The notes under the pieces were generated by a model, which worked only from the letters and a program-made list of their open reading frames with translations, searched no databases and was not told where the DNA came from. Of a stretch of DNA of 19,728 nucleotides, positions 1-16,166 are shown in pieces (position 1 is the stretch's first letter; every line of letters starts with the position of its first letter). The position numbers and the translations under genes are program-made. This stretch comes from Escherichia coli. GTDB taxonomy: Bacteria; Pseudomonadota; Gammaproteobacteria; Enterobacterales; Enterobacteriaceae. The DNA is taken from assembly GCF_003334255.1 (NCBI RefSeq), contig NZ_QOWU01000070.1. The stretch is one strand, 5' to 3'.

Positions 1-59
1 TATTTTCCGAATGCATAATGACCTCCTCTGGAATATCCCACCAATGCTATAGTGAGTAT

Positions 60-295
60 ATAAAGGTCATACCATCTTTATGTTCTTTGGCAGCGATCAC
101 GGCGGCGAGCGTGGAGCACTGTTGTACGGGCTGATCGGCACCTGCCGTCTGAACGGCATCGATCCGGAAGCGTATCTGCGCCATATCCTGAGCGTACTGC
201 CGGAATGGCCTTCCAACCGAGTTGATGAACTCCTGCCATGGAACGTAGTACTCACCAATAAATAAGCGTCAATACGGTGCTCCGTTGACGCTTAC
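60..295 (+). mobile_element. IS66-family insertion sequence, 3'-terminal remnant
   Basis: ORF 80-265 matches the conserved C-terminus of IS66-family TnpC (FGSDHGGERGALLY, LIGTCRLNGIDPEAYLRHIL, ELLPWN). It is followed at 266-295 by an imperfect palindrome ending GACGCTTAC, the reverse complement of the GTAAGCG start typical of IS66 terminal inverted repeats. An in-frame stop at 53-55 shows only the last ~60 codons are present, so the element is truncated. Confidence 0.7.
80..265 (+). pseudogene. IS66-family transposase TnpC, C-terminal fragment
   Basis: 61-aa ORF with IS66 TnpC C-terminal motifs; no upstream coding continuity. Confidence 0.7.
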
Positions 296-544
296 GTAGT
301 TTTATGGCAATTTGAAGGATGTAATGGCGCACATCCCGCAACAAAGCTGACTAAAATAGCCAGCATAACGATTTTATTTACCCCCATCTCTTGTTCCTCA
401 ATCCATATAGTTCTCAGTAATAACTGTTTTTCTGGTACAGCACTGACCGTCCAGTTAAACTTATCTCAGTACCATAGCTCTGTCAGAGCAAAACAAATCT
501 TAACGAATACAAGTTAATAGATTATTAATATCCCCCCCTCATCC

Positions 545-3256
545 CTACATTCCAGGTGATGGTGGCGTCCACTCATTATCCTGAACTGGAGTATAAGATG
601 TGTCATTCCCCCCGGATATGCTTTTCTGTTGCCTGATATATTCGTGGTAGTACTGTTCACTACGCTGACGATGTAAATCCACATCCGGGCGGCTGATTAC
701 AAAGTGTCCATTTCCGGTTATTCCAGCTGCATTATGCCAGGCCACCATTTCCGCAAATACATCATTAAACTGTTGATATGAGCCTTCCGGTTCAAAACCC
801 ATTCCAGGCTCACGATCAAACAATACAGGAGCAATCAGATTCAGCTTATCCACCAGTTCATTTCTGTCCTGATGATGGTAGAACACCACACGGTCCCCAT
901 AATCCACACAGACTAACTCGCCATTCCTCCGATCACGAAAACGCACACTGCCATCTTTCTGCAGACGGGCTTCGAGAACGCCAGTGTCTTCATAAAGTGG
1001 AGTTCCTCCCGGTTCACAGATAATCACGCAGCGGTCGGCATTCGTTGTTCGTCGCTTGTCTTTGCGACGATCACGATAATCCCAGCCACGTAACTGTGAT
1101 ACTGCAGCTCTGTCTCCCTGTACCGCCTGTTGCTCCACCCACTGCCGGTAGGACAAAGGATACCACTTACCCTCCGCAATCAGTGACAACCGCTCTTCCT
1201 TCACACTCTCCTTCAGCCTGATCAGCGCCTGCATACGCTGCACTTCCGCAATATGGTAATGCAGCTTACGCAATTGTGGATCCCGGAACTGCACGCGGAT
1301 ATACGCCTTGCGCCGACGGCAGGCAGCATGAATTTCCCGTAACCGTTCTCCGTAACGTAAGTCGGGTTTACGCCAGTGCTCCTTCCATGCAAGATAACGC
1401 GCGCGCAAATCTTCCCGCGCAGCTGCACGGGCTTCACGGCGTTCACGACGCAGTACAGGATCGCGCCGGAAGCCGGGCTCCACTTCATCGCTGGCAGCAA
1501 GTTCCGGATTGTAGCGACATTCAGGCTTCACCCGTTCAAATATATCTGCACCTGCGATCTCAAATGGCCCTGCCTGCGGCTCAGCCCTGGATAATGTCAA
1601 ATCCGGGTGGATACTGCTGGCCTTCACTGGTGTCAGCTCATGATTAAACGCATCCACAATCACAAGACCATGATGCTGTTTCTGCAACATAAGCCCTTTA
1701 CGCGCAAACATCTCATGGCACGCCTGCCAGCTGAAATTCCCGCCCGCGATCATATCTTCAATCAACGACTCACACTGAACAGTCGTGTACCCCCACAGAC
1801 TTTCCTTATCAGAAAACAGTTCGCGCTTTATTGCTCCCTGTGGACCTGTCCCCATCCGCATACGATACCATTCGTAATCACTGACAGCCCGGGTACCGGT
1901 ACTGTGCCCCCGGAATCGTTCTCCGGGGACGACCTGGGTAAAAATATCCTTCGGTACAGGCTGCCATCCGCCTTCCTGATCCTGCATGTAATCCAGCGTC
2001 ATTAACGGCCACACACTGTCTGCACGTACTGGTGTCTGTTGTTTATCAAATCCATCATGCAGTACCAGATGCCCGTGCTGGATCCCCATCCATAATCCAG
2101 CCTTTGCCAGAGTTCTGTGCACATCCAGGCAACTTTCCAGCTCACCATTTCTCGCCATTTCCGGTAAGCGTTCGGCAAAATGACGGCAGGCGTACTGTTT
2201 CAGACTCTCCGTTTCTGCCACTTTTTCCGGCCGGATATCAACGTTTATCGCTTCCGGATCATAACGACCGGGTGTCCCCACCTGACTGAAAATATCTGTC
2301 GGTACAGGCTGATATTCTCCCAGTTTCCGCCCCAGTCTTTCAGCCGTCCATGACGGGCCGAACGAACTGAGCACAACACCTTCCCGCGATCTGTCCCAGC
2401 CATCCTTCACCACCAGTTCTCCCTCCTGCATCGTGATATACAGACCATCACGGGCCAGCCGTTTATGCAAAGACAACCAGTCCTGGGCGGGTTCTTCACG
2501 CAGCCCGGCAATCGACATCTGCGCAATATATTCCCTGAAGGTCTGCTTTTTCCCGCGTCGCCAGGCATTACGGCGCTCACGTACCAGCGCTGTTTTACGC
2601 ACAATACGGTTGCCCGGTGCATGCACAAAACACCCGTTATCCGGTGCAAATCCGTGCTTAAGTTCAAGTTCACGGCATGCACGACTGAGTTTTTCCTTGC
2701 TCCACGGAAGGCAATTGATATAGCCGGTTTCAGGATGAACACGATTCACTGCAACATGTACATGCAGGTTATCGGTGTCTGTATGAACGGCAGCTACATA
2801 CTGATGTTTTGAAAGTTCAAGGGATTTCAGTGTGTGACGTACGCAGTCAAAAAGCTGCTCAGGACGCGGGCTTTCATGCGCAGGCCAGGAAAGAATGTAG
2901 TGAAAAACAGGGTCTGTATCATCTTTGGAAAAATGAGCAAGGTCTGCTGCTTTCTGCATTTCTTCAGCCGCAGATTCAAGAGACAAACAGTTATGAAAGC
3001 AGGTCACACCATAGAAATTCACCCACTGACTGCCGTCTTCCATTACATCAATCAGGGATACAAATTTTTCGTTACGCAGGCGTGTGGCATAGTCAACAAG
3101 CCGTCTGAAGCGGTTACGGTGCGGGACCTCACCTTTCATTTCCGGGTCTGGTTTGAGTTCATCATCCTGCACATCATCCCGCACAGACGTGTACGCAATC
3201 AGGTCTTCAAAGGAAGACCTTCCGTCACGTCTTTTGGGCGGAATGATAGCATTCAT
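545..3256 (-). CDS. nikB: MOBP-family conjugative relaxase (NikB-like), 903 aa
   Basis: Relaxase histidine motif HTDTDNLHVHVAVNRVHPETG (HxDxxxxHxH type). Size and N-terminus (MNAIIPPKRRDGRSSFEDL) fit my memory of IncI1 R64 NikB (~900 aa). Lies directly downstream of a nikA-like gene and oriT. Confidence 0.88.
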   Translation of the reverse strand: MNAIIPPKRRDGRSSFEDLIAYTSVRDDVQDDELKPDPEMKGEVPHRNRFRRLVDYATRLRNEKFVSLIDVMEDGSQWVNFYGVTCFHNCLSLESAAEEMQKAADLAHFSKDDTDPVFHYILSWPAHESPRPEQLFDCVRHTLKSLELSKHQYVAAVHTDTDNLHVHVAVNRVHPETGYINCLPWSKEKLSRACRELELKHGFAPDNGCFVHAPGNRIVRKTALVRERRNAWRRGKKQTFREYIAQMSIAGLREEPAQDWLSLHKRLARDGLYITMQEGELVVKDGWDRSREGVVLSSFGPSWTAERLGRKLGEYQPVPTDIFSQVGTPGRYDPEAINVDIRPEKVAETESLKQYACRHFAERLPEMARNGELESCLDVHRTLAKAGLWMGIQHGHLVLHDGFDKQQTPVRADSVWPLMTLDYMQDQEGGWQPVPKDIFTQVVPGERFRGHSTGTRAVSDYEWYRMRMGTGPQGAIKRELFSDKESLWGYTTVQCESLIEDMIAGGNFSWQACHEMFARKGLMLQKQHHGLVIVDAFNHELTPVKASSIHPDLTLSRAEPQAGPFEIAGADIFERVKPECRYNPELAASDEVEPGFRRDPVLRRERREARAAAREDLRARYLAWKEHWRKPDLRYGERLREIHAACRRRKAYIRVQFRDPQLRKLHYHIAEVQRMQALIRLKESVKEERLSLIAEGKWYPLSYRQWVEQQAVQGDRAAVSQLRGWDYRDRRKDKRRTTNADRCVIICEPGGTPLYEDTGVLEARLQKDGSVRFRDRRNGELVCVDYGDRVVFYHHQDRNELVDKLNLIAPVLFDREPGMGFEPEGSYQQFNDVFAEMVAWHNAAGITGNGHFVISRPDVDLHRQRSEQYYHEYIRQQKSISGGNDTSYTPVQDNEWTPPSPGM

Positions 3257-3267
3257 CAGCGACTGTC

Positions 3268-3600
3268 TCAGCGTCCCATTAAGTCTCTTCGCAGAGTGTT
3301 TGCAAGTTCTGTAATGGCAACGAGGACCTCTGCATACTCTTTATCTCCCGTGCGTTTTCCTTCCACAAACAGATGCTTCTGCAGGTGACCAAGACGCATC
3401 AACTCTTTCAAAAAATCTTCATCAATGCGGGCATTTATCTGTTTTCCCAGCACAGTTTTTCTTATCAGAGTTGAAACTGTCAGTCCGTTTTTTTCTGCCT
3501 TTTCTTTAACAATCTCAGCCTCTTCTGGTGAAAAACGAACAGCAATGAGGACATTCTTTTGCCGTTTCTCACTGCCATTTCGGTTTTTCTTCTCACTCAT
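3268..3600 (-). CDS. nikA: Relaxosome accessory protein NikA (ribbon-helix-helix oriT-binding), 110 aa
   Basis: 110-aa product starting MSEKKNRNGSEKRQ with SD AAGGAG 6 nt upstream of the ATG at 3598-3600; the longer 139-aa ORF in the track would overlap the oriT repeat. Small basic protein immediately upstream of the relaxase, the R64 nikA-nikB arrangement. Confidence 0.85.
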   Translation of the reverse strand: MSEKKNRNGSEKRQKNVLIAVRFSPEEAEIVKEKAEKNGLTVSTLIRKTVLGKQINARIDEDFLKELMRLGHLQKHLFVEGKRTGDKEYAEVLVAITELANTLRRDLMGR

Positions 3601-3641
3601 GGTCTGCTCCTTACCAGGGTGTCGGGGCAAAGCCCTGACCA

Positions 3642-3700
3642 GGTGGTAATCGTATAGCCGTGCGTGCGCGGTTATACGATTACACATCCTGTCCCGTTTT
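3642..3700 (+). other. oriT: oriT: inverted repeat (arms 3646-3656 / 3673-3683) followed by nick-core-like ACATCCTG TCCCG
   Basis: 11-bp inverted repeat GTAATCGTATA / TATACGATTAC, then 8 bp later ATCCTG (3686-3691) resembling the MOBP nic core (RP4 ATCCTG|C); sits between nikA and the leading region. Nick position 3691|3692 is inferred by analogy only. Confidence 0.6.
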
Positions 3701-3832
3701 TCAGGCCATTATAGCCTGTTATTTTTGTGCATCATAGTCTTATGCAGACGGCAGAGGCAGGGCGCAGCCCTGCCAGGAGGCAGTTTTTGGTGATAAAATC
3801 AGGCTTCAACATGAAACGGAGAGAAAGTGCCA

Positions 3833-4168
3833 ATGGCTTCTAAAAAATTTTACTCAGATGATGACATCCAGCTGGCAAAAGCTGCTTTATCGGAATTGCC
3901 GGACCTCACCGCTCAACGGAAAACATTGCGTGATTTTCTTGATGCCATTCGTGATGACATCATTGTCCTGGTAAGGACAAAGGGTTATACACTGACAGAT
4001 GTTCGTGACACGCTCAAAAATGCAGGGTATGAAGTAGGAGAGAAAGCACTTCGTGACATTATTCGGGAAGCAGAATCGAAAAAACCATCCCGCCGTTCTT
4101 CCTCTAAAACAGCACCTAAAAAGACAGATTCAGGCAGGAAAGATGGCATCGATATGAACAACAATTGA
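3833..4168 (+). CDS. Hypothetical small basic protein (possible DNA-binding), 111 aa
   Basis: ORF with ATG at 3833 preceded by GGAGAGAAA; C-terminal lysine/arginine/serine-rich tail; stop directly followed by the perfect palindrome GATGTGAC ga GTCACATC (4167-4185). Function not recognised. Confidence 0.6.
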   Translation: MASKKFYSDDDIQLAKAALSELPDLTAQRKTLRDFLDAIRDDIIVLVRTKGYTLTDVRDTLKNAGYEVGEKALRDIIREAESKKPSRRSSSKTAPKKTDSGRKDGIDMNNN

Positions 4169-4212
4169 TGTGACGATGTCACATCGTGTTCTGAGATTAT
4201 GATGATTACAGA

Positions 4213-4249
4213 AAAAAAAGCCCCGGCATAAATACCAGGGCTTTTCTGT
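4213..4249 (-). terminator. Rho-independent terminator for the minus-strand leading-region transcript
   Basis: On the minus strand: stem AAAGCCCTGG / CCGGGGCTTT with one mismatch, followed by a run of 8 T; located just after the stop of the 4254-5102 gene. Confidence 0.7.
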
Positions 4250-4253
4250 TTGA

Positions 4254-5102
4254 TCAGACTCGTGGCGGCAATGCACCAGGATAATGACGTGCAATAATAT
4301 CATTCAGTTTTTCAACAAGGTCAGGACACTTAAAGACAATATGTACGGTCCCTTTCTGGTAGCCACGCACCGTAAAATATTCCCCTTCAAACAACTCACC
4401 GATATTGTCGCCGTTCCCGAGATATTCACCATACTGCGCCCCGATGCTGTTCCTGAAGTCAGGAACGTTGCGTCCCTCCAGCAGATAAAACGGACGTACC
4501 AGGTCATCCAGTGCCTCCCGTCCGCTGCAGTCCAGCGTCACACGCCCGTTACTCCAGCGGTACAGCAGGTTTTCAATAATGATTTTCTTGCCCAGACGGC
4601 AGGGATTATTGGTTCTGTAATCCCATGACAATTTCCGGTAGACATCAATCAGTCCCTGTTCAAATGTCTGCATCTTGCTGGCATTCAGATGGCGAAAAGT
4701 TGCCAGTACATTGTCCAGGGTGATTTCAGGACAGGTGTCGCTCATCAGCTGGCTGTTCCACTCATCACGCTGGCATGAACTCATGAAGGTGTACATCCCC
4801 GTATCCGCCATCAGGCGGTCCCAGATTTTACGGTCGGCAAGACGGGTGATATTCTTTTTTGCTTCTTCCGGTTTATCCATGCATCGAACGGAGTCAGTCA
4901 CGCAGTCTTCAAACCCGTAGAGAAAAATGTCACCAGAAGCATCGAGCAGAATCCTGCGTGCTGTCGCCAGGCATTCCATCGCCTGCATGAACAGTGCAAT
5001 ACCTTCGTTACGCTGCGCGATAATGCGGTCGATGGCCACAGACGGAATAATATCTGTCGTGCCGGCAGTATTCAGGTCAGCAGTGGGTAAAGTCTGATTC
5101 AT
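4254..5102 (-). CDS. Hypothetical protein, first gene of the leading region (possibly DUF4942-like), 282 aa
   Basis: Long ORF; ATG at 5100-5102 with SD GAGGAG 8 nt upstream (the track start is a GTG one codon earlier). No methyltransferase, HExxH or nuclease motif seen by eye. The family assignment is from memory and weak. Confidence 0.75.
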   Translation of the reverse strand: MNQTLPTADLNTAGTTDIIPSVAIDRIIAQRNEGIALFMQAMECLATARRILLDASGDIFLYGFEDCVTDSVRCMDKPEEAKKNITRLADRKIWDRLMADTGMYTFMSSCQRDEWNSQLMSDTCPEITLDNVLATFRHLNASKMQTFEQGLIDVYRKLSWDYRTNNPCRLGKKIIIENLLYRWSNGRVTLDCSGREALDDLVRPFYLLEGRNVPDFRNSIGAQYGEYLGNGDNIGELFEGEYFTVRGYQKGTVHIVFKCPDLVEKLNDIIARHYPGALPPRV

Positions 5103-5152
5103 CACATTGTCTCCTCATCGTCACGACTGCCGGGTCAGCCAGGTCATTTCCC

Positions 5153-5463
5153 GGAGGAGCGAAGCTCCTTCTGCCGTCCGGGTCTTCGGGGATTTCCCCG
5201 CAGTGGACCTTTCCGACGGGGGACGCTCACCACGTCACGGGGCAGTTGTCCGGGGGCAGACGCAAAAGTTTTTGACGCCTGCGGCAAAAAGTTTTGTGGC
5301 TGGTACATCTCTCCCCTGGACGACTGAAACGGGATGTGGTCGTGTATGTACCCCCGGAAAGTCCGTCTGCGGAGAACAGGCCGCAGTGCGGCGGCAGACA
5401 GGCAGAGACAGCTGCGCCATCAGGCGCAGTGGCATTACACACCGTCAGGTGTGCAGGGAGCGC
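5153..5463 (+). promoter_or_regulatory. Structured GC-rich element resembling a single-stranded-DNA promoter (Frpo/ssi type), copy 1
   Basis: No credible coding despite many overlapping ORFs; dense hairpins (GGAGC gaa GCTCC, CGGGGAttTCCCCG, CTGCGCC atca GGCGCAG, CACACC gtca GGTGTG); contains TTGACG inside a hairpin; paralogous to 8317-8626. Confidence 0.6.
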
Positions 5464-5578
5464 CGCATCCGGCGCGACTGAAGAAAAACGACGGCACAAC
5501 AATGGCATGTGGTGGTCACTGGCACACCACTCCCGCACAGGTGAAAACAGAGAAAACCGCACGACATCTGCAATTAAA

Positions 5579-5667
5579 AAAAGTGAAATTTCTTCACTTT
5601 TTCACACTTATTTTTCGCGCTGATTTGGTGATTATGGTGATAAAATAAAGTGAAGTTTTTTCACTTT
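5579..5667 (+). promoter_or_regulatory. Twin operator-like palindromes and promoter upstream of the HTH gene
   Basis: Two copies of AAAGTGAA-N5/6-TTCACTTT (5579-5600 and 5647-5667) flanking an AT-rich -10-like stretch, ending 15 bp before the ATG at 5682. Confidence 0.55.
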
Positions 5668-5681
5668 TTCAAAGGTGTTTT

Positions 5682-5933
5682 ATGACCGGCTGGGAACTGC
5701 GAATCTGGCGAAAAAGCATGCTCTGGTCACGCGAAAAAGCGGCCAGAGAATTTGGCGTGACGCAGAGAACATGGCACGCCTGGGAAAATGCGGAACAGGT
5801 GGATGTCACCGTCTGGAGGACCACCCAGGCACTTTCAGTCCGTGACCTGCTGCCTCACATGCAGGGGATGCGTAAGGCAGATATCATCAGGCGACTGGAA
5901 AATGAACTGGGGGAAACGGCAGAGGATGTGTGA
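5682..5933 (+). CDS. Small helix-turn-helix (XRE-like) DNA-binding protein, 83 aa
   Basis: ATG with AAAGGTG SD; N-terminal segment ELRIWRKSMLWSREKAAREFGVTQRTWHAWEN fits an XRE-type HTH; preceded by the twin palindromes. Confidence 0.65.
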   Translation: MTGWELRIWRKSMLWSREKAAREFGVTQRTWHAWENAEQVDVTVWRTTQALSVRDLLPHMQGMRKADIIRRLENELGETAEDV

Positions 5934-5963
5934 GCGTGATTCACAGCCTGGCTGAATGCCAGG

Positions 5964-6122
5964 CTACTGCTCATCAGGAAACAGCTTTTTCAGTTCTTCA
6001 CCGGAAAGTCCCGTGACCTCCTGAATCCGTTCCGGCGGCCAGCCCATATTCCAAAGCCGGCAGGCTATTTCCCGCGCCACTTCAAGTGCGCCTTTTTGAA
6101 TAAGACGTTCTGCAATCGTCAT
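5964..6122 (-). CDS. Free-standing RpnS-like small protein (paralog of the Rpn C-terminal domain), 52 aa
   Basis: MTIAERLIQKGALEVAREIACRLWNMGWPPERIQEVTGLSGEELKKLF parallels the C-terminal tail of the adjacent Rpn protein; own ATG at 6120-6122 with SD CAGGAG; separated from rpn by a terminator hairpin. Confidence 0.6.
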   Translation of the reverse strand: MTIAERLIQKGALEVAREIACRLWNMGWPPERIQEVTGLSGEELKKLFPDEQ

Positions 6123-6146
6123 GCTGTTTGCTCTGCTCCTGCTGAC

Positions 6147-6172
6147 AAAAAAGCCCGGGATTTTGCCGGGCT
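6147..6172 (-). terminator. Rho-independent terminator immediately after the rpn stop codon
   Basis: Minus strand: stem AGCCCGG / CCGGGCT (6152-6172) followed by TTTTT (6147-6151). Confidence 0.6.
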
Positions 6173-6184
6173 TTGTGGTTCTCA

Positions 6185-7147
6185 TCAGTAAGTGATTTTC
6201 TTCAGTTCGTCATCGGAAAGTCCGGTAGCCTGCTTAATCTGCTCCGGCGTCATCCCCATTTTCTGAAGCTGGCACGCAATAGCCAGGGCTTTTTCAAGCG
6301 CTCCTTCCATGCGTCCTTCCATGCGTCCTTCCATGCGTCCTTCCATCCTGCCTTCCTGGCGACCTTTTTGCTCAAGACGTTCTGCGATAGTCATCAGTTT
6401 ATCCTCATGCTGCGGCAGACGCTCAGCCAGCGCCCGCATAAATTCCGGTGATACAGAGTCCCCTGCGTTAACGATGTAATGAATCAGAACACGCACCTGC
6501 TCGTCTGAAATTTCCACCATGACCTGCGGGAGTTTGTCCAGCAGCTCCATCATGTCACGATGGCGGATATGCTTCATCAGCAGCGTCAGTGCGGCCATCC
6601 GGCGATGGTTCATGATTTCATTGTCATCAACGACAGTGATATCAACCAGCGGAAACGGCTTTGTGTATATTTTAGCCGCAAGTGCCGGATTCTCAAAACA
6701 GTCCAGCCAGTTCATGCTGTACGGGTACGGGCTGCGCTCACCGTGATAGAACAGCACCGGAATCACCAGTGGCAACGTTTTGTGCTGCTCCAGATGTCTC
6801 TGCATCGCCGCCACACTGTAGCGTAACATGCGAAAAGGCATGTACAGATTTTCTGTGCTCTGGTGCTCGATGAGCGTATAAACATAGCCGTCTTCACCCC
6901 CGGTGGTTTTCACGCTCCAGAGGATATCGCTGGCGTACTGATGCAGGTCCGGCTCTACAAAGGTGGCGGGTTCCAGCTTCAGCGTGGACAGGTCGCACAA
7001 CTGCCGGTACTCCGCCGGAAGATGCAGTTCCAGAAAATCTCTGGCGACGTCGGGATTCGCCAGGAACGACCGGAACGCGGCATCATGCGGCGTGGGCGTT
7101 GTGGTGGTTTTCTTCTTACTCACTTTCCCTCCATGAGTTATTATCAC
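6185..7147 (-). CDS. Rpn-family (YhgA-like, PD-(D/E)XK) recombination-promoting nuclease with internal RpnS-like start
   Basis: N-terminus TPHDAAFRSFLANPDVARDFLELHLPAEYRQLCDLSTLKLE and the core ASDILWSV ... YVYTLIEHQS closely parallel E. coli RpnA as I recall it. C-terminal repeat linker and tail are present; an internal ATG at 6392-6394 with SD GAGGA would give a 69-aa C-terminal product. True start may be the GTG at 7121-7123 (SD GGAGGG). Confidence 0.8.
   Translation of the reverse strand: MIITHGGKVSKKKTTTTPTPHDAAFRSFLANPDVARDFLELHLPAEYRQLCDLSTLKLEPATFVEPDLHQYASDILWSVKTTGGEDGYVYTLIEHQSTENLYMPFRMLRYSVAAMQRHLEQHKTLPLVIPVLFYHGERSPYPYSMNWLDCFENPALAAKIYTKPFPLVDITVVDDNEIMNHRRMAALTLLMKHIRHRDMMELLDKLPQVMVEISDEQVRVLIHYIVNAGDSVSPEFMRALAERLPQHEDKLMTIAERLEQKGRQEGRMEGRMEGRMEGRMEGALEKALAIACQLQKMGMTPEQIKQATGLSDDELKKITY
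6302..6349 (-). repeat. In-frame 12-bp tandem repeat (3 perfect + 1 variant unit) encoding (EGRM)n in the Rpn linker
   Basis: Plus-strand unit TCCTTCCATGCG repeated head-to-tail; translates on the minus strand to RMEG repeats (QEGRMEGRMEGRMEGRMEG). Confidence 0.9.
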
Positions 7148-7204
7148 CGGAATTATACGCCCGTGCGGTACGCACCTGCCACGGGCAGAAAGAAGGGAAC
7201 AGAT

Positions 7205-7534
7205 TTACAGTCGTGTATACAGCCCGGTATCCCGGGTAAAAAGCCACTGCAGCTGATCGCAATAAATCCCCTCGTGCTCCGATATCTGCGCTATCCGGGA
7301 ACCCTGTTTGCTGTAAAACGTCACCGTGTAATCATCGGCAAACGTTAATTTGATCCGGACAATATTAATATTATTTTTCGCAAAATATGACGGTAACTGA
7401 AAGCATAAACCGCATTCACCATTATCATCAAAATAAGCCAGATTTTTAGCGCCGGTCATAACAACAAATCGCTGGCTCCCCAGCTGTCCGAGAATTGTTT
7501 GAGCGACATGTTCAGCATAACTCATATTCTTCAT
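7205..7534 (-). CDS. Hypothetical protein, 109 aa
   Basis: ORF in an AT-rich block behind structured element copy 2; weak SD; no recognisable motif. Confidence 0.6.
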   Translation of the reverse strand: MKNMSYAEHVAQTILGQLGSQRFVVMTGAKNLAYFDDNGECGLCFQLPSYFAKNNINIVRIKLTFADDYTVTFYSKQGSRIAQISEHEGIYCDQLQWLFTRDTGLYTRL

Positions 7535-7600
7535 TCTAATATCCTGACGAGAGATATGCCGCAGGAGACACGACTACCTGCGACACTGATAATTGGGGAC

Positions 7601-7918
7601 TCAAGTTCTGTTACGCACAACTGCAAAGAGATATTTTTTCTGGCTTATAACTTTGCATTTTATTAAACGGGCTATTTCCCTGTAGTCTTTATTAAGAGGA
7701 ATATGAATCATGTCCCCGTTCAGTTCATTAAAAACGCACCCTTTTATATATAACGTCTCATTCATGATAAAACCATACATTGAAAAATGCTGATTTTCAT
7801 ACTCTTTACTGATTAAGTGAAAATATCCCTCCAGCAGTTCCTGCGGGGGATGTGGATCAATCATCCAGTTATCACCAATATATGAACATACTTCTGTTAT
7901 CGTTGTCTGAAATGTCAT
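7601..7918 (-). CDS. Hypothetical protein, 105 aa
   Basis: ORF with SD GGGGG 5 nt upstream of the ATG; strongly AT-rich relative to neighbours; no recognisable motif. Confidence 0.65.
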   Translation of the reverse strand: MTFQTTITEVCSYIGDNWMIDPHPPQELLEGYFHLISKEYENQHFSMYGFIMNETLYIKGCVFNELNGDMIHIPLNKDYREIARLIKCKVISQKKYLFAVVRNRT

Positions 7919-7975
7919 GTTACCCCCTGAAGTAAAAACTTATGATGTGAAATGGGGCGTTTCCGCCCCCTGGTA

Positions 7976-8110
7976 TCACATGGCGTAGCCTCTGAGGTGG
8001 TCCAGCCACCAACAGAACTCGTGCCATTCGTCGCCTTTCATTGGCGGAATGCGTGTGGGTTGTCCTTTGACAACCGCATCAGCAAGGGTTACGATTTGTC
8101 TGAGTGACAT
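7976..8110 (-). CDS. Hypothetical small protein, 44 aa (MSLRQIVTLADAVVKGQPTRIPPMKGDEWHEFCWWLDHLRGYAM)
   Basis: ATG at 8108-8110 preceded by AAGGAT; the longer 75-aa ORF in the track would read through the upstream GC hairpin motif. First gene downstream of structured element copy 2. Confidence 0.5.
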   Translation of the reverse strand: MSLRQIVTLADAVVKGQPTRIPPMKGDEWHEFCWWLDHLRGYAM

Positions 8111-8316
8111 AATCAATATCCTTACAAAGGTTGTTGATATCCGTGCAAAGGGGTGTTCCCGCCCCCCTGGCACACCCACTAACCTCCTTTTCCTTCCCGG
8201 CATTCCCTCACGCTGTGCGTGATTTACATCGTTCTCACCTCCTTCACTGGGTTGTTTCTGTTCGCTAAAAAATGGTCAGGTTGTTAAAGAGCGGCACGGT
8301 ATGTTCAGGCATCTTC

Positions 8317-8626
8317 ACAGGAGCGAAGCTCCTTCTGCCGTCCACTTCTTCGGGGTTTCTCCCGCTGTGGACCTTTCCGATGGGGGCCCGTTTACCGCCT
8401 CACGGGACAGCTGTCCGGGGGCGGACGCAAAATTTTTAGCCGGGTTCATGGCTAAAAATTTTGTGGCCGGTGCATCTCACCCTGGACAGATGGAACGGGA
8501 GGGGGTTACGTCTGCCCCCCGGAAAGTCCACAGCGGGAAACAGGCCGCAGGGGTGGCGGCAGGAGGGAGGACTGCTGCGCCATCAGGCGCAGTTTCCTCA
8601 CACACCGTCAGGTGTGCAGGGAGCGC
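8317..8626 (+). promoter_or_regulatory. Structured GC-rich element resembling a single-stranded-DNA promoter (Frpo/ssi type), copy 2
   Basis: Shares blocks with copy 1 (GGAGCGAAGCTCCTTCTGCCGTCC, GTGGACCTTTCCGA, GTCCGGGGGC-GACGCAAAA, CCCGGAAAGTCC, CTGCGCCATCAGGCGCAGT, ACACACCGTCAGGTGTGCAGGGAGCGC). Contains a perfect 14-bp hairpin CAAAATTTTTAGCC / GGCTAAAAATTTTG (8428-8463). Confidence 0.6.
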
Positions 8627-9015
8627 AGGTCACGGCGCGACAGGGGCGGCGCGACCGGAACGGTCGCTGCAAGCCGGGTTTTCACGCATCGGACCGTAGC
8701 GGCAGCCCGAAACCGCGCCAGCGGGTTCGGCGGAGACTGGCGGGTGCGCCAGCAGCTGCCCGTCGGAGTCGGGCCTGACGACCGGATGCCGCCAGGCAGC
8801 CGGGAGCCGAAGTGGGCGCAATAAAAGACAGCCAGAAACGGTGACAGTGTCACGGAATATCACTCCTGTTCCCTGCATACAGCCATACACTACCTTCTGA
8901 CCGGAAAGCCGGGCCGGCAGCGCCGCAGGCGCTGCACCCCGCGTTTCCGGCAGGCGTCAGCCTGCCTGGGGTTTTCGCGCGGGCTGACAGGCGGCCTCCA
9001 CCGCCTGCCCCTGTA

Positions 9016-9207
9016 TCACCTGTTTCTGCTGCCCTGAAGGATGTAGTGACCGCCCAGGAAAACCGCCTGCTGATTCGCCACAAAATCGCAGATTTCATCA
9101 ACAATCTGCGCGGTGGTGAGCGGTTTCTGCCCCATTTCACGACGCCGCGCATTAATCACGGCCCTGTAATTACGCAGAATTTCGCGGGTTTCTGTGCTGA
9201 TATTCAT
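9016..9207 (-). CDS. Hypothetical small protein, 63 aa, translationally coupled to the upstream gene
   Basis: ATG overlaps the stop of the 9204-9626 gene (ATGA). Confidence 0.6.
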   Translation of the reverse strand: MNISTETREILRNYRAVINARRREMGQKPLTTAQIVDEICDFVANQQAVFLGGHYILQGSRNR

Positions 9208-9626
9208 GACATCGTCTCCCCGTCCAGCGCCTGTAACACAACGTCCATTGCTTCGCGTTCCTCCCTGACGAATGCGTCACCGTCGCCCCCGTTCTCACTC
9301 CCGACGGCATACAGGCGCTTCATTTCACTGCCTGCCAGCGCCATCACTTTTTCCAGCATCACCGCCGGGACTGTCACATGACGGCTGGCGCGCTTTTCTT
9401 CCATCAGTTCACGAACAACGTCGTGAACAACGCTGACATCCGCACCATGCTCAAAGGCATCGTCCAGTCGCTGCATGACGGTTTCCAGCTCATCGTCTGA
9501 CAGGTTCCAGTCCTGGGCTATGTGACGCACATCCCCACGGGTCAGCACCACGGCAAAAACGCATTCACTGTCCGGCACGTCTGTATCCAGTACATCGCGG
9601 ATGATTTCTTTAACAGTACAGTACAT
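9204..9626 (-). CDS. Acidic hypothetical protein, 140 aa (possibly DUF1380-like, a family often next to ArdB/KlcA genes)
   Basis: ATG with SD AAGGAGACG; acidic composition; family name from memory only. Confidence 0.65.
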   Translation of the reverse strand: MYCTVKEIIRDVLDTDVPDSECVFAVVLTRGDVRHIAQDWNLSDDELETVMQRLDDAFEHGADVSVVHDVVRELMEEKRASRHVTVPAVMLEKVMALAGSEMKRLYAVGSENGGDGDAFVREEREAMDVVLQALDGETMS

Positions 9627-9672
9627 GTTCTCGTCTCCTTTACAGGGGCGGCATTGCCGCCCCGTCCGTTAA

Positions 9673-10098
9673 TCAGTCAAGTGCAGCGTAAATCGCGTTG
9701 CATTCGGGGTGAAATTCGATGTGGCTCCACAACTGCGCATCGCGCATCCTGTACAGGTGTGTCAACCCTGCATCCCCGCTGTCGTGGTACAGCCACAACT
9801 GGCGGTTAATCACAAGGGAAGTCAAAATGATGCCTGCGGCATCAGCACTCACGGTACGGTCAAACCAGTTTTCACCGTTGACCAGATGAAAACGGTCGCC
9901 ATCCGGCATCATGTAACCGCCACCGTCCGGCAGGCGGATGAAGTGCCAGAATCCGCCTTCATATTCCGGCATCATTTTTTTCGCCAGCGCGTATACAGAC
10001 GCTTCGGCATACAGAAAATCCAGGCCAAACAGGTAAGGCAGAAAAGACAGACGGTCGCACTCTTCAACGTTCAGAGTGACAGGTTTCGCATACTGCAT
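9673..10098 (-). CDS. ArdB/KlcA-family antirestriction-like protein, 141 aa
   Basis: Start MQYAKPVTL with SD GGAGG 6 nt upstream (the track ORF begins earlier at 10179). Motifs FLPYLFG, EGGFWHFIRLPDGGGYMMPDGD and SADAAGIILT match my recollection of the KlcA/ArdB/YfjX family. Confidence 0.7.
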   Translation of the reverse strand: MQYAKPVTLNVEECDRLSFLPYLFGLDFLYAEASVYALAKKMMPEYEGGFWHFIRLPDGGGYMMPDGDRFHLVNGENWFDRTVSADAAGIILTSLVINRQLWLYHDSGDAGLTHLYRMRDAQLWSHIEFHPECNAIYAALD

Positions 10099-10140
10099 GG
10101 GATTTCCTCCGTTGTTCACATATTCCGCGACACCGGGCGG

Positions 10141-10364
10141 TGCCGTGCCTCCATCTTTGCCGGGCCTGCAGGGTTGCAAGGGCGCAAGGGAAGCCGCAGC
10201 CTGACGCGCACGGCTGACGGGAGTTGGAGGGTGAGACCGCGAAATCTGAGCGGGTGAACGACCGGAAAATCACGGCAGACGGGAAGGAGGGACCGGGTGA
10301 CCGCAGCGGTTCACCTTACCTTGCAACCCGCCCGCAGAAGCCCGGCTACGATGGAGGCACGGCA
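10141..10364 (+). promoter_or_regulatory. Long imperfect hairpin (about 225 bp) upstream of the klcA-like operon; possible third ssDNA promoter/ssi element
   Basis: Outer arms TGCCGTGCCTCCATC (10141-10155) and GATGGAGGCACGGCA (10350-10364) are exact reverse complements; inner arms GCCGGGC...GGTTGCAAGG / CCTTGCAACC...GCCCGGC also pair; nested palindromes CGGGTGAACGACCGG and GGTGACCGCAGCGGTTCACC. Confidence 0.5.
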
Positions 10365-10511
10365 CAGCCCGCACACGACGCTGAGGCCACATAACTGAAA
10401 ACCCACAAGGCCATGCCCCGCATGGCCGGGTAAAGCGGAGCCTGCGGCGACATCCTTTTGCTCTTTCCGGGGACCGGCTGGAAAAGGCGGAGATTTTCCC
10501 CGCCAGCGTCA

Positions 10512-10835
10512 TCATTTCCGGATTTTCGCCAGTGCATCCGCCATGCTGCGGATTTCAGTCCGGGCTTCCAGGACCACCTCCCGCAGAATATCCCGGTCAA
10601 ACCAGCGACGGGACGGTTCATCAGGTATACGCAGCACATCGCAGGCCAGCCCACTGGACAGGATATGCTCCACACACTCACTGACCAGATACATTTCCAC
10701 CGACGAAAAACGAGCGCCACGGTTCAGAATGGCATCGAGCACCACGGGCAGATTTTCGTCATCTTCATCAAGCCAGCAGGGGTAATCGCTTTCCTTCACA
10801 ACCAGACGAAAGCGGCGCGTCTGGCGGGTCAGCAA
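10512..10835 (-). CDS. Hypothetical acidic protein, up to 107 aa (start uncertain)
   Basis: ORF with TTG start in the track and no clear SD; contains the acidic stretch [12 protein letters not shown]; real start could be internal. Confidence 0.45.
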
Positions 10836-11114
10836 CGTCTGACCGGTGGTGGTCAGCGCCGCCCGGATACGCGGGCATCTTCTGCCACTTGGTAACAGAT
10901 GCTTCGTACTGCATTGCGCACTGCATCAAGAACTGCCCTGATTTCGTCTTCGGTCAGCCATTCTCCGGCATACGGGAAAAACACCTGTGTTCCGTCTGCC
11001 GGAAGTACCGGCAGCGACTGCCACTGACTGCCGGACAGTACCAGTTCCGCCCCGGTTCCGGTCAGTTTCTGAATGGCGGAGGCCAGGAGCGGCGGCAGTA
11101 CGCCGCCGTGACGG

Positions 11115-11756
11115 TTGATAAGTAACGTCCGGAAAAACTTCAGCGTCATTCTTGAGCGTACGGTACGCGAACTCAACGGCGAGTCCTGCATATCCCTGGA
11201 AGAAGCACCACCGGCAAAACAACAGATTGTCTGTAGTCGCAGTTTTGGTGAACGAATCACAGACAAAGATGCCATGCACCAGGCTGTTGTTCAGTATGCA
11301 GAGCGGGCCGCAGAGAAACTACGTGGGGAGCGTCAGTATTGCCGGCAGGTGACGACATTTGTACGGACATCCCCCTTTGCAGTAAAAGAACCCTGTTACA
11401 GCAATGCCGCTGTGGAAAAGCTTTCATTGCCCACACAGGACAGCCGGGACATTATTGCCGCCGCATGCAGAGCCTTAAACCATGTCTGGCGTGAAGGGTA
11501 CCGCTATATGAAGGCAGGAGTCATGCTGGCTGATTTCACTCCATCGGGTATAGCGCAGCCGGGATTATTTGATGAAATCCAGCCCCGTAAAAACAGTGAA
11601 AAGTTAATGAAAACACTCGATGAACTGAACCAGTCGGGAAAAGGGAAAGTGTGGTTTGCGGGGCGAGGAACCGCCCCTGAATGGCAAATGAAACAGGAAA
11701 TGCTATCGCCTTCGTATACAACACAATGGACTGAGATCCCCATTGCTTCATTCTGA
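11115..11756 (+). pseudogene. impB: impB/umuC/mucB-family error-prone polymerase gene, 3' half only
   Basis: [13 protein letters not shown] ... [11 protein letters not shown] ... TTFVRTSPFA ... PTQDSRDIIAAA ... YMKAGVMLADF ... LFDE ... WQMKQEMLSPSYTT aligns to the C-terminal ~210 residues of MucB/UmuC as I recall them. An in-frame TGA at 11109-11111 and non-homologous sequence upstream show the N-terminal half, and any impA/impC, are missing. Confidence 0.85.
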
Positions 11757-11760
11757 TATA

Positions 11761-12153
11761 TCAGAATAATTTTTTCATTTTAAGACGCACATCATTCATT
11801 GCCTTCTGCACCGAATCCGTAGCAGAAGGAGGCATTTTTTCAGCAGATTGCGAAGCACCGAGTTCAGTCAACACAGCTCTGATATCGGCCTGAGAAGGCT
11901 TCCATCCAGTCGTCTGACTGAGTAAGGTTACAACCTGATCTGCTGAAAACTCCTCGCTCAAAATGGCAGTCAGCAATACAGGCAGGCGAGGATCAAGTTG
12001 GTGTAACGCCATTCCAGAAATAAATGCATTCCGGAACAGCTCACCACGCTCAGAACGCGGAACGGACTCTATCGCTTCCAAAGTTTGAAAGTCTGCAGCT
12101 TTTTCCGGATGCAGATAAAGTGTGTATTTTTTCCTTTTCCGTTCATCGTCCAC
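11761..12153 (-). CDS. stbB: Partition adaptor StbB/ParR-like protein, about 131 aa
   Basis: Immediately downstream of the actin-type ATPase gene; GTG at 12151-12153 with SD AAAGAGGAG 7 nt upstream, just after the stbA stop (the track ATG at 12189 would overlap stbA by 32 nt). Assignment rests mainly on position. Confidence 0.55.
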   Translation of the reverse strand: MDDERKRKKYTLYLHPEKAADFQTLEAIESVPRSERGELFRNAFISGMALHQLDPRLPVLLTAILSEEFSADQVVTLLSQTTGWKPSQADIRAVLTELGASQSAEKMPPSATDSVQKAMNDVRLKMKKLF

Positions 12154-12157
12154 AATA

Positions 12158-13129
12158 TTACTCCTCTTTGAAAGCCGCGATAGCTTCAACCAGTGCTGTC
12201 TGTGGCGACTCCATCATCACTACTTTTTGCCCAAGATGGTGCCATGCCGTTTTTATCGAATCATAGATCAACGGGGCCCCACCACCGACAACATAAACAC
12301 GATTCACATGATGGAAATCACCGAGCTCATTGACTACTTGCTCCCCCAGACTGGCAATAGCCCCCTCAATGGTATTAAGGACCAGATCAGTTTTTGTTTC
12401 GTCATTTATAACCTGCCGAACAAAGTCCGGGTCATTACGACGTTTAATCAATTCATCTGCAACGAGGAAACTGGTATCACTGGATGCCATGCGCAATGCA
12501 CTCATTGCAGCTTTCGTAACTGAAGACACACCAATGCCAGAATTACCATGAATGGCACTTACAGAGTCAAATTGACCAACGATAACACCAACATCAAGCG
12601 TAGTGCCGCCAATATCAACTACCAGCGATTTTTCGAACTGACCAACTTTATCCATGACCAGACGAGAAAACACAGCTGGCAATGATTCAGGCATCACATC
12701 AACGTGTTCAATGGTGAAAACATCGCCTTTATTAAGACGAATCGGCCTCATTAAATTCTCAATTTTACGCTGAATGTTGAGTTCATTTTTTTGACACTCT
12801 TTCGTGTAGAACTCACTGATAGGCAAAGTCACAGTCAATGATACAGGCTGAGGCGCTAATCCACTATTCAGTAAAGCGTGATGCACAGCTAACAGGTTAA
12901 CATCCGTATATTGATACTCAATATGAGTCGTAAGAATAGATTGGTTACTAACTTCATCATACGTGTATTTTTTACCATCCAGTTCATAGTTAAATGTCTG
13001 GCGAATCCCTAACCCGTCAACCTTCCATCCATGACGAAATGAGTTTTGCGACAACGACTTACAGATTTTCCCATTGTCATTCCATGCCAACTTGATTGTT
13101 GTTGAACCATCATCGCAGTATACGTTCAT
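12158..13129 (-). CDS. stbA: Actin-like plasmid segregation ATPase (ParM/StbA family), 323 aa
   Basis: N-terminus MNVYCDDGSTTIKLAW parallels R1 ParM (MLVFIDDGSTNIKLQW), with phosphate motifs DIGGTTLD and VVGGGA; SD AAGGGG upstream of the ATG. Confidence 0.85.
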   Translation of the reverse strand: MNVYCDDGSTTIKLAWNDNGKICKSLSQNSFRHGWKVDGLGIRQTFNYELDGKKYTYDEVSNQSILTTHIEYQYTDVNLLAVHHALLNSGLAPQPVSLTVTLPISEFYTKECQKNELNIQRKIENLMRPIRLNKGDVFTIEHVDVMPESLPAVFSRLVMDKVGQFEKSLVVDIGGTTLDVGVIVGQFDSVSAIHGNSGIGVSSVTKAAMSALRMASSDTSFLVADELIKRRNDPDFVRQVINDETKTDLVLNTIEGAIASLGEQVVNELGDFHHVNRVYVVGGGAPLIYDSIKTAWHHLGQKVVMMESPQTALVEAIAAFKEE

Positions 13130-13357
13130 CTATAGCCCCTTAAATACTCAATCTGAGTAAATCACTGTTTCTGGTTGCAAGGTAATACTCAATTTGAGCA
13201 CCATCATAGTTATGAAATCACAAAACACAAGTATTATTTATTACATCACATGACTCACTTCATATTTCATACTTCATAAATGTGAACGCATATTGACACC
13301 TCAGGTTACCGTGTCAAAATATCATCATACTTCACACATCACATTTATGAGGTTGCA
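13130..13357. promoter_or_regulatory. AT-rich divergent promoter / centromere-like repeat region between stbA and parA
   Basis: Direct repeats AATACTCAATCTGAGTA (13143-13159) and AATACTCAATTTGAGCA (13183-13199), plus repeated ACTTCATA / ACATCACAT motifs; lies between divergently transcribed partition operons. Confidence 0.55.
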
Positions 13358-14002
13358 ATGATTACTGTAGTTGGTGGGAACAAAGGTGGTTCAGGGAAAA
13401 CTACCATTGCATCAAACCTGGCTATTGCTCTCGCAAATAAAGGAAGGGAAGTCTGCCTGTTAAACGGAGATCTACAACGAACAGCCGCAAAACATCATGC
13501 GGAACGAGAAGCTGCAGGACTGTTACCAGCAATAACCCTTGTTGAGAAATTTGATAATCTGACACAAACACTACAGGCTCTGAATGAAAAGTTCGATGAT
13601 GTAATAGTGGATGTCGCAGGAAGAAACTCAAAGGAATTCATAACGAGTGGAGTTGTCGCACATCAAATAATTGCGCCACTACAGTGTTCTCAACCAGATC
13701 TGGATACTCTTACAGAACTAGAACAACAGATAGACGCAATGCGTAACCTTAACCCGGAACTTAAGGTTTATTGTTTACAAAGTATGGCAACAACCAATCC
13801 GGTTTTGAGGGGAAATGAGAGAAAAGAATTCCTTGAATATCTTGAAGAATTCCCAACAATTCAAGTCCTGGATTCAGTTATTTGTTTCAGAAAAGTCTAT
13901 CGCGATTGCATGAGCAACGGCACCGGTGTAGTAGAAACGAACAATACAGCAGCCAAAGCAGAAATTGAACATTTAATGAATGAGGTATTTGGCCCATGGT
14001 GA
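13358..14002 (+). CDS. ParA-family (small, ParF-like) partition ATPase, 214 aa
   Basis: Deviant Walker A VVGGNKGGSGKTT near the N-terminus; SD GAGG upstream of the ATG. Confidence 0.85.
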   Translation: MITVVGGNKGGSGKTTIASNLAIALANKGREVCLLNGDLQRTAAKHHAEREAAGLLPAITLVEKFDNLTQTLQALNEKFDDVIVDVAGRNSKEFITSGVVAHQIIAPLQCSQPDLDTLTELEQQIDAMRNLNPELKVYCLQSMATTNPVLRGNERKEFLEYLEEFPTIQVLDSVICFRKVYRDCMSNGTGVVETNNTAAKAEIEHLMNEVFGPW

Positions 14003-14271
14003 AAAAACCCAGCCAGCAAGCATTAAACAGAGCTGCAGTTACGGTAGAACAAGCAGAGGCTCTGGCTCAGCGCCTTGCGGATAAACCATACGGCGCGCCG
14101 GAAAAAACCGAACCAGAAAAACAATGTCGGACGACAATCTCTCTTGGTGAAAGCATGCTTGTCACAATAGAAGATCTGGCATTGAGGAATAAACGCAATG
14201 GTAAAGATCCAAAAAATGTAAGTGCCATCGTCAGAGTAGCCCTTGAGCAATACTTAAAAACACTAACGTAA
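13996..14271 (+). CDS. Small partner protein of ParA (possible ParG/RHH-type centromere-binding protein), 91 aa
   Basis: Start overlaps the parA stop (ATGGTGA), indicating translational coupling; small, charged. Function inferred from position. Confidence 0.5.
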   Translation: MVKKPSQQALNRAAVTVEQAEALAQRLADKPYGAPEKTEPEKQCRTTISLGESMLVTIEDLALRNKRNGKDPKNVSAIVRVALEQYLKTLT

Positions 14272-14340
14272 TAATCAAGAAGTTATTACTTATGAAATCA
14301 CACTTGTGAATTCATACTGTTTAAGCACCCTTGCATACAA

Positions 14341-14371
14341 GAGATCACATATTGCAGTGGTCTCTTTTATT
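14341..14371 (+). terminator. Rho-independent terminator after the parA operon
   Basis: Stem GAGATCAC / GTGGTCTC (one G-U pair), 8-nt loop, followed by TTTTATT. Confidence 0.6.
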
Positions 14372-14401
14372 ACAGAATAATTCATAATTATGATTTGTGA
14401 A

Positions 14402-15184: not shown

Positions 15185-15185
15185 A

Positions 15186-15599: not shown

Positions 15600-15682
15600 G
15601 GGTGACTCCTTTTTTCTTTTCCGGGCAGGGACGGTCATGCGATAACGTCATCCATCATCACTGCCCTTACCGTCACGCCGTC

Positions 15683-16130: not shown

Positions 16131-16166
16131 TTACCTGTCAGAACATTATCAGATGGAGTGTGCAGG

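Follow-up and report, generated by a model that had tools for sequence, protein, structure and literature searches.

The first 545 bp of the window, the 19,728-nucleotide stretch of Escherichia coli DNA that was analyzed, very probably record two successive and ordinary transpositions in a plasmid lineage of the I-complex (IncK2/Z type) that was already devoid of its conjugation machinery. In the first step, the three-gene element ISEc23 inserted into a TolA-like lipoprotein gene located 3′ of nikB, duplicating the 8 bp GTAGTTTT and splitting the gene after codon 31. In the second step, ISEc45 entered the CT core of the ISEc23 tnpC gene, between AAAAACT and TTATG at codon 476. This second insertion cut the last 62 tnpC codons off from the rest and disabled ISEc23's own transposase. 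The features on which this reading is based are the following.

1–75, minus strand: left end of ISEc45 (IS110 family, IS1111-like layout), 100% identical to annotated ISEc45 copies.
Within 1–75, minus strand: 59-bp 5′ untranslated end of ISEc45, with the subterminal repeat TATGACCTTT and the RBS GAGGAGG.
ATG at 16, minus strand: first 16 nt of the ISEc45 transposase gene, which continues off the window.
76–77: CT core dinucleotide (AG in the transposase orientation), found on both sides of ISEc45; recombination crossover point.
76–296, plus strand: 3′ terminal 221 bp of ISEc23 (IS66 family), 99.8% identical to intact ISEc23, with a C-terminal match to NF033517.
77–262, plus strand: codons 476–537 of ISEc23 tnpC, followed by the stop codon at 263–265.
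263–294: perfect 10-bp hairpin TAAGCGTCAA / TTGACGCTTA within the right end of ISEc23, overlapping the tnpC stop codon.
Terminus at 296, plus strand: right inverted repeat of ISEc23, ending in ...GTTGACGCTTAC.
297–304: right copy of the 8-bp ISEc23 target-site duplication, GTAGTTTT.
295–387, minus strand: first 31 of the 131 codons of a TolA-C-terminal-domain lipoprotein gene (MGVNKIVMLAILVSFVAGCAPLHPSNCHKTT; lipoprotein signal with cysteine), interrupted by ISEc23.
545–3256, minus strand: nikB, full-length MOBP relaxase of 903 aa (NF041893, 409 bits, cut-off 250).
3268–3600, minus strand: nikA (mobA), relaxosome accessory protein of 110 aa (NF041264, 111.6 bits, cut-off 80).
3640–3700: presumed oriT core, read directly from the sequence; inverted repeat TAATCGTATAaCCG / CGGcTATACGATTA beside ACATCCTGTCCC on the plus strand.

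The open reading frame at 80–265 corresponds to the C-terminus of an IS66 transposase (NF033517 positions 348–385 of 387, E 1.9e-8). Its score falls short of the cut-off for the whole protein solely on account of its incomplete length; TnpC of intact ISEc23 reaches 452 bits against the same profile (cut-off 180). When the two tnpC halves were joined and used as a probe, 427 of 427 bases aligned to intact ISEc23 copies with 99.8% identity. The match that assigns the fragment to ISEc23 is far beyond chance. The left inverted repeat (IRL), which starts at 16318 in the relative sequence L004 (GTAAGCGTAAACTG...), agrees with the right one (IRR; ...CGCTTAC at 296) in 20 of the first 24 positions counted by eye, and both start with GTAAGCG. 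The terminal repeat ends at 296, 248 bp past the nikB stop, and the statement of the initial annotation that about 250 bp after nikB run into a terminal repeat was correct in distance; positions 295–387 within this interval are the start of the TolA-like gene.

The other parts of ISEc23 were seen in relatives, which are 99.5–100% identical to the window over the shared part. In all nine relatives of sufficient length, the rest of the element (IRL, tnpA, tnpB, and tnpC codons 1–475) was found directly past the 1444-bp ISEc45; tnpA and tnpB, upstream of tnpC, are present in these relatives only and lie outside the window. ISEc23 in the complete relatives is whole but split by ISEc45, rather than truncated. 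Because the window starts 75 bp inside ISEc45, it shows no more of ISEc23 than the right 221 bp, which mimic a truncated remnant. The IS66-family remnant proposed 3′ of nikB is confirmed as an ISEc23 end by profile and DNA identity, while its description as truncated is replaced by that of an element split by ISEc45.

Two comparisons set the terminus of ISEc45, one against intact ISEc23 and the other against a second copy of ISEc45 inside ISEc43. Bases 60–75 (TAAAGGTCATACCAT) form the tip of the element, and the second copy shares this terminus beside a different flank. Intact ISEc23 reads AAAAACTTTATG at the insertion site, and the interrupted copy reads AAAAACT-[ISEc45]-CTTTATG. ISEc45 generates no conventional target duplication and shares the 2-bp CT core with its target. 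The initial annotation had considered bases 1–59 unrelated to IS66; DNA of another origin is indeed present at the left edge, but the boundary is at 75/76 and not at 59/60, and the whole of 1–75 belongs to ISEc45. In the relatives, the full-length ISEc45 transposase matches NF033542 with 278 bits (cut-off 140) and is a DEDD transposase with PF01548 and PF02371; the window holds only the first 16 nt of its gene. An IS3-family element annotated beside ISEc45 in CP055726.1 was considered as the cause of the left boundary and rejected, as it lies inside the ISEc45 transposase gene about 40 bp past base 1.

We compared both flanks of ISEc23 with an uninterrupted backbone. The left copy of GTAGTTTT was found at 16310–16317 of L004, directly left of the IRL, and the 280-bp left junction was identical in the nine relatives long enough to cover it (9/9). 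By blast, L004 16061–16317 corresponds to L002 9753–10009, and L004 from 20295 onward corresponds to L002 from 10001 onward. The intact backbone L002 covers both ISEc23 flanks with a 9-base overlap (10001–10009), and in the relatives the TolA-like gene resumes for 257 bp on the far side of the element. Since ISEc23 is flanked by the 8-bp duplication, it entered the TolA-like gene by simple insertion. The interrupted gene is annotated as a pseudogene by PGAP in the G8 plasmid. In the conjugative relative NZ_CP027324.1 (IncK2/Z) the gene is intact, its product matching the TolA C-terminal profile with E 3e-14, under the cut-off of that model. It is the gene immediately 3′ of nikB in this plasmid, in the place where further tra or trb genes had been expected as the normal continuation.

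The presence of an IS end next to nikB had raised the possibility that a truncated IS66-family element marks an IS-mediated deletion of the transfer genes 3′ of nikB. The absence of trbABC left of nikB in all junction-sharing relatives, and the mere 221 bp of the IS contained in the window, are in line with this proposal. However, the intact duplication and the 257 bp of gene beyond the IS point to a simple insertion, without loss of neighbouring DNA, and the element is split and not truncated. Furthermore, the break in the backbone of the relatives is situated about 260 bp past the left end of ISEc23, at an IS3-family fragment. The sister plasmid NZ_CP145705.1, which carries an intact TolA-like gene without ISEc23, also shows the identical traC'-'traY fusion and is devoid of trbABC. 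We consider a deletion scar very improbable. Because the sister plasmid has the same deletions, the transfer genes were probably lost before, and independently of, the insertion of ISEc23, which appears as a late bystander. The suspected deletion of the downstream transfer region was right in that trbABC and the pil/tra genes are lost in the relatives, but the IS is not the scar of that loss.

Relatives sharing the junction were retrieved from PLSDB with a required coverage of window 1–700 of 80% or more. Four complete plasmids have this region in common (NZ_CP116070.1, CP055726.1, NZ_CP060058.1 and NZ_CP060062.1). MOB-suite classifies all four as 'mobilizable', assigning them a MOBP relaxase but no mating-pair-formation system, and all are near-identical plasmids typed IncK2/Z, the replicon itself being outside the window. 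Plasmids annotated with an 'IncI1-type relaxase NikB' showed only about 90% DNA identity, and the earlier assignment to an IncI1-type plasmid gives way to the IncK2/Z type of the I-complex. Neither in PLSDB nor among the complete E. coli genomes was a record collinear over the full 19.7 kb. Two contigs, UGCK01000003.1 and CABDVM010000005.1, are collinear with positions 1–13256 of the window. The G8 and G6/7 plasmids match the window at 100% but contain IS421 and ISEc12 as additional insertions and differ by 3.4 kb toward the right end.

The G8 plasmid, which is annotated end to end, gives the extent of the losses. In this plasmid about 10.4 kb of IS debris with ireA occupies the place of trbA (except for 72 bp), trbB, trbC, and an adjoining ORF, and a traC'-'traY pseudogene fusion is accompanied by the disappearance of the entire pil/shufflon/traE-X block. 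The comparison with intact backbones called for by the initial annotation thus revealed both a non-transfer gene 3′ of nikB in NZ_CP027324.1 and a real lack of trbABC and pil/tra in G8. At least 24 contigs encode an identical NikB; among the matches listed, IS elements and ireA were found beyond the remnant at 10 of 10 loci, and no trb gene was detected there. Intact trb/tra genes just past the IS, which would have spoken against a deletion, were not found at these loci. In the proposed history, trbABC would have been exchanged for an IS-flanked ireA island and pil/tra removed by the traC'-'traY deletion, both losses being separate from the insertion of ISEc23 and older than it. Both trbA and trbC are required for conjugation in the I-complex, and a trbA mutant of a plasmid of the IncB/O/K/Z cluster does not conjugate (PMC10286972).

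On the window itself, nikB, nikA, and the oriT-like region are intact, and nikB has the same length as in NZ_CP027324.1. The ATCCTG of the presumed oriT core would correspond to the nick-region motif of IncP/IncI oriT. Retention of oriT-nikA-nikB suggests that the plasmid would be mobilisable by a compatible I-complex helper; judging from the relatives, it would be incapable of self-transfer. This agrees with the earlier proposal of a mobilisable rather than self-transmissible plasmid, transposed to the source from the four complete relatives. The window stops inside ISEc45, so that the DNA beyond base 1 lies outside it, and conjugative IncK2/Z relatives such as NZ_CP027324.1 exist; the source plasmid might then still carry trb/tra elsewhere, or the window might derive from a cointegrate. 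Since every junction-sharing relative is devoid of a mating-pair-formation system, and the same IS/ireA context recurs at the 10 loci listed, a self-transmissible source is hardly to be expected. Plasmids of this known mobilisable IncK2/Z family carry ireA together with colicin/microcin-type genes. They are found in E. coli of the human gut, and the probiotic Symbioflor 2 strains G8 and G6/7 are among their hosts.

The order of the two insertions was also considered. ISEc23::ISEc45 may have arrived as a ready-made composite, with a further ISEc23 copy acting in trans to mobilise it. Both ends of ISEc23 as well as tnpA and tnpB are intact, the nested arrangement is common on chromosomes and plasmids, and among the PLSDB records covering at least 80% of 1–700 no plasmid has ISEc23 at the TolA-like site without ISEc45. 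On the other hand, the G8 plasmid has a further ISEc45 inside ISEc43 that differs by 1 mismatch in 1444 bp, which shows that recent independent targeting is possible. We regard arrival as a composite as a serious possibility but the less probable one, and retain the successive insertion of ISEc23 and ISEc45. A composite would bring the two steps into another order and leave the identities of the sequences unchanged.

ISEc45 was found repeatedly at the same place. The second copy on the G8 plasmid occupies the homologous position of the ISEc43 tnpC. Of 5426 complete E. coli genomes, 1255 contain ISEc45-like DNA and 823 the junction between ISEc45 and an IS66-family tnpC. Roughly 1700 copies are present in E. 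coli genomes, and ISEc45 relatives form a class at 90–95% identity. ISEc45 recurs at one conserved site of IS66-family tnpC genes, which is mildly notable. Part of this recurrence could reflect the spread of an already nested ISEc23::ISEc45 composite instead of repeated targeting. We looked in the literature on ISEc45, on ISEc23 with IS110, and on seekRNA with IS66, where a preference for IS66-family tnpC targets is not described. A comparable case is known, as ISEc21 (IS110 family) targets a conserved stretch of IS3-family transposase genes (PMC11187229).

The NCBI profile for the transposase family of ISEc45 is named 'RNA-guided transposase'. This name, together with the occupation of one site in two IS66-family elements and across hundreds of E. 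coli genomes, suggests that ISEc45 could choose its site by RNA-guided, sequence-specific recombination. The 251-nt non-coding region 3′ of the transposase gene gave a folding z of −2.55. With E up to 1, no Rfam family matched ISEc45 or its flanks, and a k-mer search of the non-coding ends against the target yielded only two weak 7-mers, of which one lies 17 nt away from the insertion point. We find it somewhat probable that ISEc45 is an RNA-guided element of the IS110/IS1111 type programmed for the conserved tnpC motif …GKKN-F/Y…FFGSDHGG, acting as a parasite that disables its host IS in about 15% of complete E. coli genomes. If ISEc45 is so programmed, the first 75 bp of the window would be one edge of such an event. 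Its recurrent nesting in tnpC offers a natural set of targets for studying guide-RNA programming in IS110/IS1111 elements.

As a whole, the region 1–545 is routine mobile-element debris on a known mobilisable IncK2/Z family, and it matters little outside correct annotation. Its lesson is that, where a window cuts through an IS, the fragment seen there can belong to a complete element interrupted by a different IS, and need not be the scar of a deletion. Because the lineage lost self-transfer through other deletions, the ISEc23 junction would be a marker of the lineage and not the cause of that loss.

The closest known systems differ from the window in defined respects. ISEc23 is shared at about 99.8% DNA identity over its visible part, with terminal repeats of the GTAAGCG type, an 8-bp duplication, and tnpA-tnpB-tnpC in the relatives; unlike the intact element, its tnpC is split here at codon 476 by ISEc45, and the window contains only the last 221 bp. 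The I-complex conjugative plasmids (R64 IncI1, and IncK2/Z plasmids such as NZ_CP027324.1) have the oriT-nikA-nikB module and the leading region in common with the window, and the backbone of the conjugative IncK2/Z plasmid is 94.5% identical across nikB. In contrast to these plasmids, none of the junction relatives has trbABC, and traE-X and pil are missing as well from the fully annotated relative. They are of the IncK2/Z and not the IncI1 type, and nikB is followed directly by the TolA-like lipoprotein gene instead of a transfer gene. ISEc45 is identical in sequence to the known element, with its DEDD transposase, short 5′ end, 251-bp 3′ non-coding region, and subterminal inverted repeats, a layout which resembles that of the IS1111 group (Siddiquee et al. 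2024, PMC11187229). Like ISEc45, ISEc21 is an IS110-family element whose natural target is a conserved coding stretch in the transposase of another IS family; it is, however, a different element, its host family is IS3 and not IS66, and its non-coding region lies on the opposite side of the transposase gene.

The following features were found at the nikB end of the window.

1-75, read on the minus strand as ATGGTATGACCTTTATATACTCACTATAGCATTGGTGGGATATTCCAGAGGAGGTCATT-ATGCATTCGGAAAATA: left end of ISEc45 (IS110 family), with the transposase start codon at base 16
80-265, left of nikB: ORF encoding MFFGSDHGGERGALLYGLIGTCRLNGIDPEAYL..., matching the IS66 transposase profile over its final 38 positions
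263-294: perfect 10-bp hairpin inside the IS66-family terminal repeat
295-387: first 31 codons of the TolA-like gene, with a lipoprotein-type signal and its terminal cysteine
545-3256, minus strand: nikB, 903 aa, TraI/MobA(P) relaxase model at 409 bits (cut-off 250)
3268-3600, minus strand: nikA, NF041264 at 111.6 bits (cut-off 80)

The profile match of the ORF at 80-265, the hairpin and the terminal repeat, which ends in ...GTTGACGCTTAC at base 296, confirmed that an IS66-family element ends about 250 bp beyond nikB, as the initial annotation had stated. Four complete plasmids matched window 1-700 with 99.9-100% identity, and in the same four an IS66-family fragment is annotated beside an "IS110-like element ISEc45 family transposase". 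A probe was built by joining the IS66 fragment of the window to the tnpC part that lies beyond ISEc45 in the G8 plasmid (locus L004); intact "ISEc23 family" copies matched it over 427/427 bases at 99.8%. Base-by-base comparison with an intact ISEc23, which reads ...GGAAAGAAAAACTTTATGTTCTTTGGC... across the split point, showed that the interrupted copy reads ...AAAAACT-[ISEc45]-CTTTATGTTC..., with a CT dinucleotide on either side of ISEc45, and that ISEc23 resumes at window base 76. This puts the boundary at 75/76 and not 59/60; arithmetic on the coordinates places the split of tnpC at codon 476 of 537. The initial observation is thus real and takes three corrections. The boundary moves to 75/76, the element described as truncated is instead interrupted, its remainder lying beyond ISEc45 in the relatives, and the neighbouring sequence, rightly called foreign to IS66 but confined to 1-59, is ISEc45.

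As judged from its flanks, ISEc23 is a simple insertion and not a deletion scar. In L004, GTAGTTTT directly precedes the left end of ISEc23 (GTAAGCGTAAACTG...), and the same GTAGTTTT follows its right end at window 297-304; the pair is an 8-bp duplication, as IS66-family elements are expected to make on insertion. Alignment with the corresponding locus (L002) of the conjugative IncK2/Z plasmid NZ_CP027324.1 placed the left flank of ISEc23 (257 bp) at L002 9753-10009 and the right flank from L002 10001 onward. In the intact backbone the two flanks therefore adjoin each other, with a 9-base overlap around the 8-bp duplication. The target, directly downstream of nikB, is a gene of 396 bp (131 codons) whose product is a lipoprotein with a TolA C-terminal domain. 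The left junction (280 bp) is identical in 9/9 related loci whose length covers it.

The contig collection has 349 blocks with the exact 903-aa NikB. At all ten places displayed (10/10) the order was the same: nikB, a 61-aa fragment of the IS66 C-terminus, ISEc45, the remaining part of ISEc23, IS debris and then, in the seven displayed loci of sufficient length, ireA. Two of these contigs, UGCK01000003.1 and CABDVM010000005.1, run collinear with window 1-13256 without the IS421 and ISEc12 insertions of G8. Empty sites for the IS421 and ISEc12 copies of the Symbioflor 2 probiotic plasmids G8 and G6/7 lie at window positions of about 8151-8163 and 11628-11632, and the window is a version of the G8/G6/7 plasmid with fewer IS elements. 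The window has IS DNA at both of its ends (ISEc45 on the left, 1-75; an IS3/IS629-type transposase gene on the right, 18811-19728), as expected of a short-read contig broken at repeats, and because of this break only the ISEc45 stub and the ISEc23 "remnant" are visible. The last 77 bases match elsewhere in the G8 plasmid, 3.4 kb from the match of the preceding sequence. In CP055726.1 (L013 13297-14606), an IS3-family element of 1310 bp with a GTT duplication and ends TGAACCGCCCCGG... interrupts ISEc45 near codon 19 of its transposase gene; the nesting there is threefold, with an IS3-type element in ISEc45, ISEc45 in ISEc23 and ISEc23 in the TolA-like gene.

The intact relative NZ_CP027324.1 has the gene order trbA-trbB-trbC-ORF-(TolA-like)-nikB, and the proposed comparison with an intact backbone bore out the loss of trbA, trbB and trbC in G8. 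Backbone homology is absent from G8 between L002 4248 and 9752: trbA is missing except for 72 bp, trbB, trbC and the adjoining ORF entirely, the TolA-like gene has lost its final 55 bp, and in their place stand IS fragments with ireA, about 10.4 kb in all. Elsewhere on G8, a traC′ fragment directly abuts a ′traY fragment with only excA kept (L007 24061-26347, corresponding to NZ_CP060058.1 96060-98346), and no pil genes or traE-traX are annotated anywhere on the 99.8-kb G8 plasmid. One deletion appears to have taken the whole pil/shufflon/traE-X block. MOB-suite typed 4/4 complete relatives as mobilizable, IncK2/Z and MOBP, so that the earlier IncI1 label named the wrong Inc group; the loss of self-transfer in this lineage is well founded. 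Two MOBP relaxases are present in the typing of G8-type plasmids.

The sister plasmid NZ_CP145705.1 (98.6% identical over window 296-19728) has an intact TolA-like gene without ISEc23 there. It carries the same traC′-′traY fusion and ireA island and lacks trbABC, and the deletions are therefore older than, and independent of, the ISEc23 insertion. The phenotype initially read from the IS66 end, mobilisable and not self-transmissible, remains the likely one; its cause was misplaced, ISEc23 being a simple later insertion. In NZ_CP145705.1 (L008 3674-5381), a second nikB copy, truncated at its 5′ end, comes after the intact TolA-like gene, as does a peptidase-ABC/HlyD exporter pair.

Upstream of nikA, window 3640-3700 contains an inverted repeat (TAATCGTATAaCCG/CGGcTATACGATTA) adjoining ACATCCTGTCCC, with the ACATCCTG motif next to the repeat; this is probably the oriT nick region. 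By the IncP/IncI nick-region consensus, the repeat and ACATCCTG would be the presumed oriT core.

ISEc45 is 1444 bp long. A second copy on the G8 plasmid (L006 about 6218-7662) differs from the first (L004 18632-20075) by one mismatch in 1444 bp and sits in tnpC of ISEc43, another IS66-family element, at the homologous CT-core position. ISEc45-like DNA was found in 1255/5426 complete E. coli genomes, and 823 of the 1255 carry a junction of the ISEc45 left end with an IS66-family tnpC, counted where at least 80% of a probe spanning it was covered. This suggests that ISEc45 prefers, as programmed, a conserved IS66-family coding motif. Alternatively, the spread of a pre-formed ISEc23::ISEc45 composite could explain part of the recurrence; the plasmids matching window 1-700 included no lineage member whose ISEc23 at this site is uninterrupted.

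A programmed preference of ISEc45 can also be considered from its structure. In the relatives, the full transposase (377 aa) matches NF033542, "IS110 family RNA-guided transposase", at 278 bits (cut-off 140). The non-coding region of 251 nt on the 3′ side of the transposase gene (L004 18632-18882) is a candidate seek/bridge RNA. Its fold is only moderately more stable than that of shuffled sequence (z = -2.55), it has no Rfam match, and its guide-like matches to the target were only 7-mers. This region, the short 5′ end and the subterminal inverted repeats form the layout described for IS1111-type elements (PMC11187229). ISEc21, another IS110-family element, has as its natural target a conserved stretch within the coding sequence of IS3-family transposases (PMC11187229). 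From the recurrent tnpC site, the IS1111-type layout and this precedent, we infer that ISEc45 is guided to a tnpC sequence conserved in IS66-family elements. Everything described here belongs to known element families and to a known kind of plasmid decay.
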